This document shows, in pieces, positions 44,950 through 48,730 of a stretch of DNA of 64,000 nucleotides. The notes under the pieces were generated by a model, which was given only the letters and a program-made list of their open reading frames with translations, made no database searches and was not told where the DNA came from. The position numbers and the translations under genes are program-made. Each line of letters begins with the position of its first letter. Positions within the stretch are counted from its first letter, which is position 1. The stretch is taken from the NCBI RefSeq assembly GCF_017348835.2, contig NZ_CP071375.1, one strand, 5' to 3'. This DNA is from Escherichia coli. GTDB lineage: Bacteria; Pseudomonadota; Gammaproteobacteria; Enterobacterales; Enterobacteriaceae.

Positions 44950-46302
44950 ATGACTAAACACTATGATTACATCGCCATCGGCGGCGGCAGCGGCGGTATC
45001 GCCTCCATCAACCGCGCGGCTATGTACGGCCAGAAATGCGCGCTGATTGAAGCCAAAGAGCTGGGCGGCACCTGCGTGAATGTTGGCTGCGTGCCGAAAA
45101 AAGTGATGTGGCACGCGGCGCAAATCCGTGAAGCGATCCATATGTACGGCCCGGATTATGGTTTTGATACCACTATCAATAAATTCAACTGGGAAACGTT
45201 GATCGCCAGCCGTACCGCCTATATCGACCGTATTCATACTTCCTATGAAAACGTGCTCGGTAAAAATAACGTTGATGTAATCAAAGGCTTTGCCCGCTTC
45301 GTTGATGCCAAAACGCTGGAGGTAAACGGCGAAACCATCACGGCCGATCATATTCTGATCGCCACAGGCGGTCGCCCGAGCCACCCGGATATTCCGGGCG
45401 TGGAATACGGTATTGATTCCGATGGTTTCTTTGCCCTTCCTGCTTTGCCAGAGCGCGTGGCGGTTGTTGGTGCGGGTTACATCGCCGTTGAACTGGCGGG
45501 CGTGATTAACGGCCTCGGCGCGAAAACGCATCTGTTTGTGCGTAAACATGCGCCGCTGCGCAGCTTCGACCCGATGATCTCTGAAACGCTGGTCGAAGTG
45601 ATGAACGCCGAAGGCCCGCAGTTGCACACCAACGCCATCCCGAAAGCGGTAGTGAAAAATGCCGATGGTAGCCTGACGCTGGAGCTGGAAGATGGTCGCG
45701 GTGAAACGGTGGATTGCCTGATTTGGGCGATTGGTCGCGAGCCTGCCAATGACAACATCAACCTCGAAGCCGCTGGCGTTAAAACCAACGAAAAAGGCTA
45801 TATCGTCGTCGATAAATATCAAAACACCAACGTTGAAGGTATTTACGCAGTGGGTGATAACACGGGTGCAGTGGAACTGACACCGGTAGCAGTTGCAGCG
45901 GGTCGCCGTCTCTCTGAACGCCTGTTTAATAACAAGCCGGATGAGCATCTGGATTACAGCAACATTCCGACCGTGGTCTTCAGCCATCCGCCGATTGGTA
46001 CTGTTGGTTTAACGGAACCGCAGGCGCGCGAGCAGTACGGCGACGATCAGGTGAAAGTGTATAAATCCTCTTTCACCGCGATGTATACCGCCGTCACCAC
46101 TCACCGCCAGCCGTGCCGCATGAAGCTGGTATGCGTTGGACCGGAAGAGAAGATTGTCGGTATTCACGGCATTGGCTTTGGTATGGACGAAATGTTGCAG
46201 GGCTTCGCGGTGGCGCTGAAGATGGGTGCAACCAAAAAAGACTTCGACAATACCGTCGCCATTCACCCAACGGCGGCAGAAGAGTTCGTGACAATGCGTT
46301 AA
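44950..46302 (+). CDS. gor: Glutathione reductase Gor, 450 aa
   Basis: 450-aa ORF with FAD motif GGGSGG and redox-active [13 protein letters not shown]. Confidence 0.95.
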
Positions 46303-46308
46303 ATGTTA

Positions 46309-46339
46309 AAGGGCTAAGAGTAGTGTGCTCTTAGCCCTT
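46309..46339. terminator. Hairpin between convergent gor and dinQ
   Basis: AAGGGCTAAGAG-tagtgtg-CTCTTAGCCCTT perfect 12-bp stem. Confidence 0.5.
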
Positions 46340-46355
46340 AATTACGTTTCCGCTA

Positions 46356-46439
46356 TCAGTTCAGAAGCTGAAGCAGAAAGCGGATCAGTTCCAGCAGCGC
46401 AATTAACGCCCCAAGAACGATGATTGCTTTATCAATCAC
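46356..46439 (-). CDS. dinQ: DinQ, 27-aa SOS-inducible membrane toxin peptide (type I TA-like, regulated by agrAB antisense RNAs), GTG start
   Basis: Minus strand 46439..46356 translates (V/M)IDKAIIVLGALIALLELIRFLLQLLN*; too short for the ORF track; position after gor. Confidence 0.8.
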   Translation of the reverse strand: MIDKAIIVLGALIALLELIRFLLQLLN

Positions 46440-46632
46440 CCGTTTTCTCCATGCGATGGAGTGAGAATGCATCCGCTTACTCATCCACTGCCTGTCACGG
46501 CGCATGTCTCATTGTTAGATAAGAACTCTCTCACTCCGGCCAGAGCATCAGTTAACGGCACCACCCGTACTTCTGACCAGGACTTTGAAAGCGTTTATGC
46601 GCATTACCAGAGTGAAAATGCCTCAGAGCTAA

Positions 46633-46648
46633 CTGGATAATCATACAG
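46633..46648 (-). promoter_or_regulatory. LexA box (CTG-N10-CAG) of the dinQ promoter
   Basis: aaCTGGATAATCATACAGta, about 195 bp upstream of dinQ; TATAAC -10-like hexamer immediately upstream on the minus strand. Confidence 0.6.
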
Positions 46649-46678
46649 TACATTCAGGTTATAAAACCAGCATGTCCT

Positions 46679-47771
46679 GTGTAAGTTCACAGAGATATTG
46701 CAATTGCCTCCGGATAAGTAAGGGGAGATTGCACTATGCAAATGCAGCATCTGATGGTTGGCTATCCTAAGTACTACCAAACGGCCGATTATGCGTTGAG
46801 GCTTTCAGTGATGGCTGATATAGCAACAATGAGAATGAAGGCTCTGCACTTCTGGGATAAACACGGTATTTCTGCAGCTTCTGAAGCCTTTGGCGTGTCC
46901 TGCCGCACGCTTTACTGGTGGCGTCAGTTACTGAACAAGGAAGGACCTGAGGGGCTAATCCCGCACAGTAAGGCACCTCTGGTGCGACGAAAAAAACACT
47001 GGCATCCCGATGTGCTGAAAGAGATTCGACGCCTCAGGACAGAGCTGCCGAACCTCGGTAAAGAGCAGATTTTTGTTCGCCTGAAGCCCTGGTGCGAACA
47101 GCGCTATCTGGCCTGTCCGAGTGTTTCCACCATCGGCAGAATGATCGCTGCCGCACATGATAAAATGCGGATGATACCTGTGCGTCTGGGATCGCGGGGG
47201 AAGGCACTGCTTGTCAAAAAGCGGTCTGCCAAACCCCGCAGGCCAAAGCACTACCGCCCGGTAAAGACAGGTGAGCTCATTGGGATGGACGCCATTGAGC
47301 TCAGAATGGGCGAACTGCGTCGCTATGTCATCACCATGATCGACGAATGCAGCAATTACGCGCTGGCGCTGGCTGTGCCGTCACTCAACAGTGATATCGT
47401 CAATCACTTCTTCAGCCGCGCAGCCCGGTTGTTCCCGGTCGGTATCAGCCAGATAATCACAGATAACGGAAAAGAGTTCCTGGGAAACTTCGACAAAACG
47501 CTGCAGGAAGCCGCTATCAAACACCTCTGGACCTATCCCTACACGCCAAAAATGAACGCTATCTGTGAACGTTTTAACCGGACGTTAAGAGAGCAGTTTA
47601 TTGAATTTAATGAGATTTTACTCTTTGAAGATCTGGCGCTATTTAACCAGAAGCTGGCGGAATATCTGGTGCTGTATAACAGCAAAAGACCCCACAAGGC
47701 GCTCGCACTAATGACGCCCGTGGAATATATTTTAAAAGAGAATAAAAATTGCAATATGTGGTGGACCCATA
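46679..47771 (+). mobile_element. IS481-family insertion sequence (~1.09 kb) with imperfect terminal inverted repeats and 8-bp target-site duplication CATGTCCT
   Basis: CATGTCCT at 46671-46678 and 47772-47779; termini GTGTAAGTTCACAGAGATATTGCAATT and AATTGCAATATGTGGTGGACCCATA are inverted; single rve/DDE transposase fills the element; boundaries uncertain by ~10 bp. Confidence 0.7.
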
Positions 47772-47818
47772 CATGTCCTTGCAATAGTTTCAGTATGGTA
47801 TTAGCATTGATGCGTTAG
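46736..47818 (+). CDS. IS481-family DDE (rve) transposase, 360 aa; last ~15 codons are read from the target duplication and flanking DNA
   Basis: 360-aa ORF with N-terminal HTH region and integrase core (ITDNGKEF, YTPKMNAICERFNRTL); stop codon lies 47 bp beyond the inferred right end. Confidence 0.8.
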   Translation: MQMQHLMVGYPKYYQTADYALRLSVMADIATMRMKALHFWDKHGISAASEAFGVSCRTLYWWRQLLNKEGPEGLIPHSKAPLVRRKKHWHPDVLKEIRRLRTELPNLGKEQIFVRLKPWCEQRYLACPSVSTIGRMIAAAHDKMRMIPVRLGSRGKALLVKKRSAKPRRPKHYRPVKTGELIGMDAIELRMGELRRYVITMIDECSNYALALAVPSLNSDIVNHFFSRAARLFPVGISQIITDNGKEFLGNFDKTLQEAAIKHLWTYPYTPKMNAICERFNRTLREQFIEFNEILLFEDLALFNQKLAEYLVLYNSKRPHKALALMTPVEYILKENKNCNMWWTHTCPCNSFSMVLALMR

Positions 47819-47897
47819 ATGATGGCATTCTCACTCCAGCCAGAGCCACCAACTCTGGGCTGCAAAGTAAAAAACCGACGCAAAGTCGGTTTTTTTA
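47815..47897 (+). ncRNA. agrA: agrA-like small antisense RNA of the dinQ locus (approximate ends)
   Basis: TTGCAA-N17-TAGCAT promoter-like pair, CTCACTCCAGCCAGAGCC segment matching the dinQ leader, terminator hairpin ACCGACGCAAAGTCGGT plus T7. Confidence 0.5.
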
Positions 47898-48044
47898 CAT
47901 CCGGATTCGGACAAGGCTTAATATGACGATGACCCAGTGAAAGTATATAAATCGTCACTGCGATATATACCGAAGTGCCCCCTCCGCCAGCTGAAGAAAT
48001 CGCTAATTCTTGCAATGTTAGCCACTGGCTAATAGTATTGAGCT

Positions 48045-48127
48045 GTTAGATAAGAGCTCTCTCACTCCAGCCAGAGCCACCAACTCAGGGCTGGAAAGTA
48101 AAAAACCGACGCAAAGTCGGTTTTTTT
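48045..48127 (+). ncRNA. agrB: agrB-like small antisense RNA, second copy (approximate ends)
   Basis: Near-identical second copy with TTGCAA-N17-TAGTAT promoter-like pair and the same terminator. Confidence 0.5.
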
Positions 48128-48159
48128 ACGTCCTGATTCAGACCTCCTTTCAAATGAAT

Positions 48160-48240
48160 AGCCAACTCAAAATTCACACCTATTACCTTCCTCTGCACCT
48201 ACGCATTCGTTAAACCATATATGTTTTTGACTTATCCGCT
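48160..48240 (+). promoter_or_regulatory. Probable ars operon promoter/operator remnant, now directly upstream of a short arsB tail and arsC
   Basis: Sequence with TTGACT at 48227-48232 where arsR would be expected; no arsR or arsB ORF follows; identity with the K-12 ars promoter is from memory and unverified. Confidence 0.3.
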
Positions 48241-48241
48241 T

Positions 48242-48292
48242 TGGTTTGTAACGCTGGCTGCGCTGGCGCTACGTCTCTCTTTCACTTTGTAA
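48242..48292 (+). pseudogene. Possible 3'-terminal remnant of arsB (16 codons, WFVTLAALALRLSFTL*)
   Basis: Short hydrophobic frame ending 12 bp before arsC ATG, the position where arsB normally ends; no upstream arsB body. Confidence 0.3.
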
Positions 48293-48304: not shown

Positions 48305-48730
48305 ATGAGCAACATTACCATTTATCACAACCCAGCCTGCGGCACATCGCGTAATACGCTGGAGATGATCCGCAACAGCGGTACAGAACCGACCATTATC
48401 CATTATCTGGAAACACCACCAACGCGCGATGAACTGGTAAAACTCATTGCCGATATGGGGATTACCGTACGCGCGCTGCTGCGTAAAAACGTCGAGCCGT
48501 ATGAGGAACTGGGCCTTGCGGAAGATAAATTTACTGACGAGCGGTTAATCGACTTTATGCTTCAGCACCCGATTCTGATTAACCGTCCGATTGTGGTGAC
48601 GCCGCTGGGAACTCGCCTATGCCGCCCCTCGGAAGTGGTGCTGGAAATTCTGCCAGATGCGCAAAAAGGCGCGTTCTCCAAGGAAGATGGCGAGAAAGTG
48701 GTTGATGAAGCGGGTAAGCGGTTGAAATAA
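48305..48730 (+). CDS. arsC: Arsenate reductase ArsC (glutaredoxin-dependent), 141 aa
   Basis: 141-aa ORF MSNITIYHNPACGTSRNTLEMIRNSG with catalytic Cys12. Confidence 0.95.
   Translation: MSNITIYHNPACGTSRNTLEMIRNSGTEPTIIHYLETPPTRDELVKLIADMGITVRALLRKNVEPYEELGLAEDKFTDERLIDFMLQHPILINRPIVVTPLGTRLCRPSEVVLEILPDAQKGAFSKEDGEKVVDEAGKRLK

Follow-up and report, generated by a model that had tools for sequence, protein, structure and literature searches.

A dinQ-agrAB toxin/antisense-RNA locus split by an IS481-family element in Escherichia coli, with AgrA as a proposed antitoxin of second specificity

The window analysed here, a stretch of 64,000 nucleotides (nt) from the Escherichia coli contig NZ_CP071375.1 (RefSeq assembly GCF_017348835.2), contains at positions 46356-48130 what is very probably a chromosomal SOS-induced type I toxin/antisense-RNA locus, dinQ-agrA-agrB, split by an insertion sequence (IS) and with AgrA as a second-specificity antitoxin, not a decayed copy; our high confidence applies to these statements taken together. 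The role of AgrA as second-specificity antitoxin for the commonest E. coli dinQ allele is what we infer from sequence comparison, and the locus in the window is presumably still functional. The dinQ-agrAB locus, its promoters, its terminators and the effect of the 5' differences between AgrA and AgrB were already published in 2013 and 2016, and both Rfam and NCBIfam cover the locus; any novelty would lie in the switching of alleles and the site-specific IS.

Over the whole length of the locus region the sequence is 100% identical to E. coli PE164, a pig isolate, and to F2_81, and the RefSeq annotation of PE164 names gorA, dinQ, an IS481 family transposase and arsC. The window aligns to K-12 in a left block (46201-46678, 98.95% identity, 5 of 478 positions differing) and a right block (47772-48241, 97.4% identity, 12 of 470), and it is because of these two blocks that the features of the locus can be read as those of K-12 (Table 1). 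An initial annotation, made from the letters alone, had recognised dinQ-agrAB here, and this identification is borne out by the K-12 identity, the PE164 annotation and the Rfam and NCBIfam matches. Among the features that it listed, the DinQ open reading frame (ORF), the LexA box, agrA and agrB are genuine, as judged from Rfam, NCBIfam, RefSeq and near-identity to K-12, but it missed the IS and the deletion of arsR and arsB.

Table 1. Features of the dinQ-agrAB locus and its surroundings (positions in the window; aa, amino acids; bp, base pairs; CDS, coding sequence; UTR, untranslated region)
Feature	Position	Strand	Basis or remark
gor	44950-46302	+	Pfam pyridine-nucleotide disulphide oxidoreductase
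dinQ primary transcript, inferred by homology	46305-46633	-	Numbering transferred from PMC5066626
Hairpin between gor and dinQ, shared bidirectional terminator	46309-46339	both	Terminator-like, 14 pairs; location as in PMC3567139
dinQ CDS, 27 aa, GTG start	46356-46439	-	Last 27 codons of a 49-aa ORF, 46356-46505
Antisense target in dinQ 5' UTR (G88-A119)	46515-46546	-	D2 repeats; PMC5066626
LexA operator 1, CTGGATAATCATACAG	46633-46648		Identical to K-12 operator; described in PMC3567139
Candidate second LexA operator and dinQ -35 region, CAGGTTATAAAACCAG	46655-46670		Tentative; PMC3567139 places a second operator near the first
Target-site duplication TGTCC, left copy	46673-46677		K-12 empty site, ...GCACGTCC followed by TTGCAAT
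IS481-family insertion sequence, 1096 bp, ends TGTGTAAG...CCCATACA	46678-47773	+	K-12 empty site, identical copies elsewhere
Transposase ORF, 360 aa	46736-47818	+	Pfam rve, rve_3, HTH_32; RefSeq WP_001178364.1 'IS481 family transposase'
Target-site duplication TGTCC, right copy	47774-47778		K-12 comparison
agrA promoter, TTGCAA (47779-84)-N17-TAGCAT (47802-07)	47779-47807	+	Same sequence as K-12; promoter described in PMC3567139
agrA small RNA	47815-47898	+	Rfam RF02891 (AgrB), 100.3 bits, non-canonical pair flagged
agrA terminator, AAAAAACCGACGCAAAGTCGG+T7	47869-47896	+	Identical to agrB terminator
agrB promoter, TTGCAA (48010-15)-N17-TAGTAT (48033-38)	48010-48038	+	Identical to K-12
agrB small RNA	48046-48129	+	Rfam RF02891 (AgrB), 108.1 bits
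agrB terminator, AAAAAACCGACGCAAAGTCGG+T7	48100-48127	+	Identical to agrA terminator
Deletion junction (ars)	48241-48244		K-12 comparison
arsC	48305-48730		Pfam ArsC

The 27-aa DinQ ORF held up on translation (VIDKAIIVLGALIALLELIRFLLQLLN), in line with a small, hydrophobic toxin spanning the membrane once, and scored 54 bits against the NCBIfam model toxin_DinQ, whose cutoff is 30; RefSeq carries the accession WP_001295215.1 at the locus in PE164 and in all other strains fetched. Its CDS differs from that of K-12 by a single, synonymous change at 46413. Transfer of the numbering of PMC5066626 (GUG = G195, Shine-Dalgarno = G184-187, U16-U19) puts +1 at 46633 and the site of +44 processing at 46590, with GGAG (46450-46447) as Shine-Dalgarno and the GUG at 46439, and the four-U run +16 to +19 is located precisely as the numbering predicts. 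Every published regulatory element maps onto the window with the expected bases: leader elements 1-4, which allow the +1 structure with a closed Shine-Dalgarno and the +44 structure with an open one, all lie at homologous positions, and their sole change from K-12 is C28U at 46606, which keeps a G-U pair with G94.

The CTG-N10-CAG LexA box proposed in the initial annotation is likewise sustained as a predicted binding site, overlapping the dinQ -10 hexamer TATGAT (46645-46640, minus strand). By itself the pattern is frequent, with 32 occurrences in the window versus about 12 expected, and we read this box as a LexA operator because of its 100% identity with the K-12 operator, not because of the pattern. 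A LexA consensus scan allowing up to 3 mismatches returned no match, since the box has 5 mismatches to the idealised palindrome. A second, weaker LexA operator lies near the first in K-12, and the dinQ promoter overlaps both (PMC3567139). The only sigma-70-like site from the generic scan in this region, GTGAAA-18-GATAAT (46612-46641, plus strand), overlaps LexA box 1 and points to the IS and agrA; K-12 has the same site.

Both 84-nt agr units, which lie in tandem with a period of 231 bp, match RF02891 end to end (gathering score 40, E about 1e-18), so that the two units noticed initially are confirmed by Rfam; their TTGCAA-N17 promoter-like pairs and their hairpin-plus-T7 terminators can both be read in the sequence as described. 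The generic promoter and terminator scan listed neither the agr promoters nor the agr terminators, a result that is uninformative rather than negative, given overly strict thresholds and the inclusion of the A-run and T-run in the stem. An 18-nt core, CTCACTCCAGCCAGAGCC, is exact in both units (about 0.03 chance matches expected). It also occurs in the dinQ leader as had been claimed, but at 46530-46547 and with 2 mismatches (CTCACTCCgGCCAGAGCa), not at 46510-46527. Since the members of this direct-repeat family, D2 (46513-46546, 47813-47846 and 48044-48077), are direct repeats while dinQ reads from the opposite strand, the agr RNAs are antisense to the dinQ leader. Upstream of the core the two units differ, with the block GATGGCATT in agrA (47821-47829), which has no match to the resident dinQ, and AAGAGCTCT in agrB (48052-48060); the difference had been seen correctly, although the two strings given for it were offset by one base. 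Compared with K-12, agrB carries A11G in the block, creating a G-U wobble, and agrA carries 5 substitutions: TA>AT in the block, a T>C that restores a core pair, and two in stem 1. The two private substitutions of agrA are at 47856 and 47863, and the G>C at 47863 leaves a C-C mismatch in stem 1.

The antisense target in the dinQ leader consists of a 9-nt variable specificity block at 46521-46529 (AAGAACTCT) and the conserved core. Against positions 46515-46547, AgrB forms 30 Watson-Crick pairs, 1 G-U pair and 2 mismatches of 33, versus 25 Watson-Crick pairs, 4 G-U pairs and 4 mismatches for AgrA, and the predicted duplex energies are -62.4 versus -49.4 kcal/mol. These energies come from a 40-nt by 72-nt calculation, which replaced a duplexfold of the full-length small RNA with the whole mRNA that over-extends the duplex. 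AgrA mismatches the resident leader in the 9-nt block, at AgrA nt 7-15. The initial annotation had named the invariant core as the target; the core does lie in the leader, but the discriminating element is the 9-nt block 5' of it. The pairing predicted for the two copies agrees with K-12, where complementarity to dinQ extends over 25 of 31 nt for AgrA and 30 of 31 nt for AgrB (PMC3567139, Weel-Sneve 2013), and the suggestion that the 5' ends affect relative repression of dinQ is upheld by the K-12 papers (PMC3567139, PMC5066626) and is not new. As a separate observation, 46457-46470 and 47825-47838 form a perfect 14-nt inverted match: AgrA nt 11-24 (GCAUUCUCACUCCA) are identical to dinQ mRNA around 'sequence 3' (+164 to +177), an internal element competing for the same partner (sequence 2), and the identity is shorter in K-12.

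In K-12, dinQ is LexA-controlled, and translation, which begins at GUG and gives an inner-membrane peptide of 27 aa, is confined to the +44 transcript; AgrA and AgrB are expressed constitutively from a common transcription start sequence, their transcripts and 5' ends having been mapped experimentally, and AgrB alone counters DinQ toxicity, UV sensitivity resulting only from agrB loss (PMC3567139). Binding of AgrB to G88-A119 closes the Shine-Dalgarno hairpin again and leads to cutting by RNase III, whereas AgrA has neither effect (PMC5066626, Kristiansen 2016); AgrB, not AgrA, blocks translation of the +44 transcript (PMC5066626). By homology, LexA would repress dinQ in the window strain, and DNA damage would yield a primary transcript rich in 5' UTR and not translatable. 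Removal of its first 43 nt would give the +44 mRNA, from which the inner-membrane toxin of 27 aa can be translated. The 5' ~33 nt of constitutive AgrB would pair with the leader from +88 to +119, re-closing the Shine-Dalgarno hairpin and leading to RNase III cleavage. AgrB would thus be the antitoxin matching the resident dinQ, with AgrA as its upstream tandem paralogue.

The window locus shares with K-12 dinQ/agrAB (PMC3567139; PMC5066626; RF02891; NF041472) its place downstream of gor, the DinQ peptide, the LexA operator, leader elements 1-4, the Shine-Dalgarno and the GUG, as well as the agrA and agrB promoters and terminators and the combination of a matching AgrB with a mismatched AgrA. 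It differs by the 1096-bp IS, the arsR/arsB deletion and the AgrB, AgrA and leader substitutions given above.

Among the other IS-bearing strains the dinQ target block varies, and the blocks at dinQ and at the agrA and agrB positions were tabulated for these strains and six further genomes (Table 2), 12 genomes being inspected in all. All 10 distinct haplotypes from complete genomes have a resident agr copy whose block shows no more than one true mismatch to that of dinQ; when dinQ alleles were shuffled among haplotypes, 4 of 20000 trials did as well. Z1323CEC0015 and LWY24 show the opposite of the K-12 roles: in them AgrA forms 30 of 33 Watson-Crick pairs at -58 to -62 kcal/mol, and AgrB has 7 mismatches at about -45 kcal/mol. 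The first 33 nt of LWY24 AgrA are those of window AgrA and pair with their own type-A leader at -62.3 kcal/mol; window AgrA would therefore pair with a type-A leader as well as AgrB does with the resident one. In four genomes, EC12, FWSEC0007, UTI89 and RMDEC465, one 231-bp unit is gone, and the remaining agr copy has an agrA-type promoter and a block matching the resident dinQ.

Table 2. Specificity blocks at dinQ and at the two agr positions
Strain	dinQ	agrA position	agrB position
K-12	AAGAACTCT	GATGGCTAT	AAGAACTCT
Window	AAGAACTCT	GATGGCATT	AAGAGCTCT
Z1323CEC0015	AATGGCATT	AATGGCATT	AAGAACTCT
LWY24	AATGGCATT	GATGGCATT	AAGAGCTCT
O157:H7	AATGGTATT	GATGGCATT	GTGGGCATT
MDR_56	GTGGGCATT	GATGGCTAT	GTGGGCATT
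OkiPb01695	GTGGGCATT	GATGGCATT	GTGGGCATT
UTI89 / EC12	GACGACTAT	GATGGCTAT, only copy	none
FWSEC0007	AATGGCATT	AATGGCATT, only copy	none
RMDEC465	GTGGGCAAT	GTGGGCATT, only copy	none

Counts were made over 5426 complete E. coli genomes, the leader types being counted with 56-nt allele-specific searches in which both flanks were shorter than the 28-nt seed. Leaders of type B, the K-12 and window type, were found in 1683 genomes, type A in 2341 and type C in 434. The agrA-position copy carries the identical block in 1666 type-A genomes, and an agrA-position copy is present in 1651 of the 1683 type-B genomes. The agrA-agrB spacer occurs in 3841 genomes, and about 29% appear to be single-copy. Type-A dinQ accompanies a K-12-type agrB in roughly 1100 genomes, and type-B dinQ accompanies agrB in roughly 1450, both figures being estimated from rows taken at even intervals.

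When metagenomes were scanned for the leader, whatever its block, further alleles appeared, probably from relatives or from plasmid-borne dinQ-like loci. Four of them, GATAACTAT, AAAGTTTGC, GATGATGTT and GATGGAACT, have exactly the same block in an agr copy 181-199 bp away, and in the pair GTAAACCGT/GTAGACCGT the dinQ and agr blocks differ by one G-U. Metagenome contigs were rejected as evidence on copy number, because 9 type-B contigs carry an agrA-type copy alone, which is hardly ever so in complete genomes. The 66-nt exact repeat of the agr units probably collapses in short-read assembly, which calls for caution in surveys of the locus.

With moderate confidence, we conclude from these comparisons that agrA and agrB may represent two antitoxin specificities, that four or more alleles of the target block occur in dinQ leaders of E. 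coli (B, AAGAACTCT; A, AATGGCATT; C, GACGACTAT; D, GTGGGCATT), each matched by a resident agr copy, and that the K-12 and window arrangement, in which AgrB matches, is the minority one (1683 versus 2341 type-A genomes). The same, joint degree of confidence extends to the origin of the window haplotype and to the target preference of the IS, which are set out below. Co-variation of the 9-nt block with the dinQ leader is not described in any of the papers that could be searched; T1TAdb takes the more stable of the two agr paralogues.

The haplotype of the window is itself mixed. Within the compared interval 46305-46677, the window agrees with Z1323CEC0015 (type A) at the polymorphic sites 46413, 46606, 46654 and 46673, where K-12 differs, and with K-12 at all eight sites within 46507-46528. 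This pattern indicates that an exchanged tract of at least 22 and less than 192 bp separates the type-A leader from the type-B leader of the window, and the agr alleles of the window (GATGGCATT, AAGAGCTCT) are those of the type-A strain LWY24. We lean towards a dinQ region consisting of a type-A backbone in which a short exchanged tract would have switched control from AgrA to AgrB. Gene conversion from agrB to dinQ was considered as source of the tract and rejected, with 3 of the 8 differences (46507, 46509, 46510) lying outside the agr homology, which makes exchange with another dinQ allele the more likely route. Substitutions at 46507-46510, just 3' of the target in the mRNA, co-vary with the block 46521-46529 and appear, suggestively, to compensate for it in a local hairpin whose loop UCUAAC is complementary to the Agr 5' UUAGA. 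In this modelled hairpin the paired cells amount to 77.8%, and both sides change in 4 of the 9 pairs, a result equalled by 14 of 500 shuffles; it is no more than suggestive, since the structure was derived from one of the sequences themselves. The loop could be the site of first Agr contact.

The IS, which makes up 62% of the interval, sits between the divergent dinQ and agrA promoters. The empty site of K-12 reads ...ACCAGCACGTCC followed by TTGCAATAG..., and the window reads ...ACCAGCATGTCC, then the IS from TGTGTAAG to CCCATACA, then TGTCCTTGCAATAG. Its terminal inverted repeats are imperfect, with ends TGTGTAAGTTCAC... and ...GTGGACCCATACA and an inner ATATTGCAATT common to both. The transposase matched NCBIfam transpos_IS481 at E = 1.7e-65 and 221.4 bits, just below the curated cutoff of 224, the next family being IS3 at 98 bits. 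Its ORF has no stop within the IS and ends at a TAG (47816-47818) formed by nt 2-4 of agrA, and the C-terminal tail of the transposase differs at each insertion site. Because the first downstream terminator is that of agrA itself, the transposase mRNA should carry AgrA sequence at its 3' end. The IS ends about 45 bp from the dinQ and about 42 bp from the agrA transcription start, and the agrA -35 hexamer begins 5 bp from the IS end. Despite the insertion, the dinQ -10 and -35, both LexA sites, the agrA -35 and all RNA elements are intact. At the left end, the last C of the duplication and the IS terminus together form CTGTGTAAGTTCACAG (46677-46692), a perfect CTGT-N8-ACAG pair of LexA-like half-sites that shortly precedes the transposase start; chance alone would give about one such site in 64 kb, but its position is suggestive of SOS control of transposition.

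Copies of the IS of at least 80% length occur in 1072 genomes, at up to 38 places in one genome, and only 7 of the 5426 complete genomes have it at dinQ-agrA. Copies with 100% identity were found at dinQ-agrA, iap-hok, hokB, prophage hokD and malS-avtA. Both duplication copies read TGTCC in the window, EC12 and FWSEC0007, whereas in IAL7255, which has a K-12-like backbone, both read CGTCC; the two alleles imply that the IS inserted independently two or more times, each time at this base pair and in this orientation. At the same site, the IS of Z1323CEC0015 has lost the first bases of its left end, shows no clean duplication and has a frameshifted transposase, and may be a copy that has decayed or else the product of a third, aberrant insertion. 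A 5-bp duplication was seen at 6 IS sites. Wherever a copy with about 100% identity lies, the 5-bp duplication and, behind it, TTGC adjoin its right end, in fixed orientation: [T/CGTCC]TTGCAAT at dinQ-agrA, [ATGTC]TTGCC at iap-hok in E2348/69, [TCTCC]TTGCC at both hokB and prophage hokD, [CCGAT]TTGCA at malS-avtA, and ATATG-TTGCAAT at the right flank in UTME-9. The hokB duplication is the reverse complement of GGAGA, which reads as the hokB ribosome-binding site, and the IS lies just upstream of the CDS, in the ribosome-binding or start-codon region, of three hok genes (iap-hok, hokB and prophage hokD). The target pattern is less clear in older copies, which have about 93% identity and lie at galF-yegH and, on ColV plasmids, between iss and iroB. 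These sites point to N5-TTGC, supplied by the agrA -35 hexamer and by sequences upstream of hok, as the probable target of the IS, which would make it a recurrent visitor to type I toxin loci; this belongs to the joint reading with the two antitoxin specificities and shares its moderate confidence. A literature search for this IS adjoining hok found nothing relevant, and a GTDB genome scan for its right end matched two metagenome-assembled contigs, probably E. coli contamination and useless for target analysis.

A rival to the second specificity is the view, proposed in PMC3567139, that AgrA is a degenerating AgrB duplicate without function, its 5' differences being decay and not a specificity code. 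AgrA indeed does not repress K-12 dinQ, in vivo or in vitro (PMC3567139, PMC5066626), and the two private changes in window agrA, one of them breaking a stem pair, fit relaxed constraint on a copy without a resident target. Yet in the allele class with most members (2341 genomes) the leader block equals the agrA-type block or nearly so, the match being exact in 1666 of them, and the agrA-position gene is the sole copy in UTI89, EC12 and FWSEC0007, where it matches the resident dinQ. Random decay would not track its target so well, as the shuffled trials indicate, and we regard loss of function in AgrA as unlikely, though it is the most serious of the alternatives. Besides the private agrA changes, several points count against AgrA as a second antitoxin or against the locus as we read it. 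If G-U pairs are allowed, AgrA has 2 true mismatches to the type-B block, and specificity may be quantitative, not absolute. Three metagenome contigs (L034, L038, L079) have no matching agr copy, and may be strain chimeras. Composite BLAST queries for co-occurring alleles produced cross-matches, since the junction base, or a 23-nt flank with 6 nt of the block, made 28-mer seeds, and the resulting counts were used only after decoding by identity class. Finally, each agr promoter matches 8 of 12 consensus positions, and the generic scan listed neither.

This silence of the generic scans on agr promoters and terminators is also what would speak for the agr units being repeated intergenic DNA, of the repetitive extragenic palindromic (REP) or terminator-repeat kind, and not small-RNA genes. 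That idea is effectively refuted by full-length Rfam covariance matches of 100-108 bits, by 97% identity to the K-12 agrA and agrB genes, annotated there as ncRNA, whose transcripts were mapped (PMC3567139), and by co-variation of the agr 5' block with the dinQ target across strains. A different concern is that the IS damaged the locus, through loss of upstream promoter DNA, transposase read-through into agrA or an outward promoter acting on dinQ, and that the module is decaying. No more than ~42-45 bp separate the IS ends from the two transcription starts, and they displace the A/T-rich upstream spacer of each promoter, the transposase ORF ends within agrA with no terminator between, the same IS lies between three hok genes and their upstream leaders, and the inserted copy of Z1323CEC0015 has itself decayed. 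We nevertheless consider such damage improbable, more so than decay of AgrA: no change affects the -35 and -10 hexamers, the two LexA sites or the leader and CDS of dinQ, nor agrB, which encodes the matching antitoxin and lies another 230 bp away, and an intact toxin without antitoxin control should be counter-selected, whereas the IS arrangement persists in at least four locus backgrounds.

The picture of AgrA as an antitoxin of second specificity suggests that the K-12 label 'non-functional AgrA' reflects the strain studied. If it is true, a spare antitoxin gene would allow short-patch recombination to alter the specificity of the toxin leader while the toxin stays under control throughout. 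The locus would offer alleles that occur naturally (A, B, C and D, and others in related species) for studying the way in which antisense specificity is set by a 9-nt block, and an IS landing repeatedly and site-specifically beside toxin genes bears on the inactivation or rewiring of such loci. For annotation, position alone is not enough to identify 'AgrB'.

The zorO/orzO-zorP/orzP system of O157:H7 and the Ibs/Sib families likewise have tandem or multiple toxin/antisense pairs that are almost identical, the choice of toxin mRNA by each antitoxin being set by few nucleotides of the pairing region. As far as is known, each antitoxin of those systems has its own toxin gene in the same genome, whereas the dinQ locus has two antitoxin genes for one toxin gene, with a leader that switches between strains. 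Like dinQ, tisB/istR-1, another type I locus of E. coli induced by SOS, combines a LexA-controlled toxin with an inert primary mRNA activated by 5' processing and a duplex cut by RNase III (PMC5066626, PMC5668327); its sequences are unrelated, it relies on ribosome standby where dinQ has a switch closing the Shine-Dalgarno, and it has no tandem second antitoxin.

The IS resembles other IS481-family elements in its single transposase of helix-turn-helix plus DDE (rve) type, its TGT...ACA ends and its short target duplication, and its nearest named relative is ISKpn28 (about 75% DNA identity); the fixed-orientation N5-TTGC target and the transposase ORF without internal stop set it apart. Pedersen and Gerdes reportedly described, in 1999, IS150 and IS186 insertions adjoining K-12 hok loci, which likewise associate IS elements with chromosomal type I toxin loci. 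The uncharacterised 'ISu' in the CRISPR-I (iap-cysH) diagrams of Almendros 2014, which also include hok-sok (PMC3903273), is probably this element.

On the two sides of the locus, the dinQ terminator lies a few nucleotides past the gor stop codon (PMC3567139), and a 1686-bp deletion relative to K-12 has removed arsR and all but the last ~50 bp of arsB, the arsB remnant extending to 48292 and being followed by arsC. The same ars deletion junction is present in 1111 of the 5426 genomes, including UTI89 and EC12.

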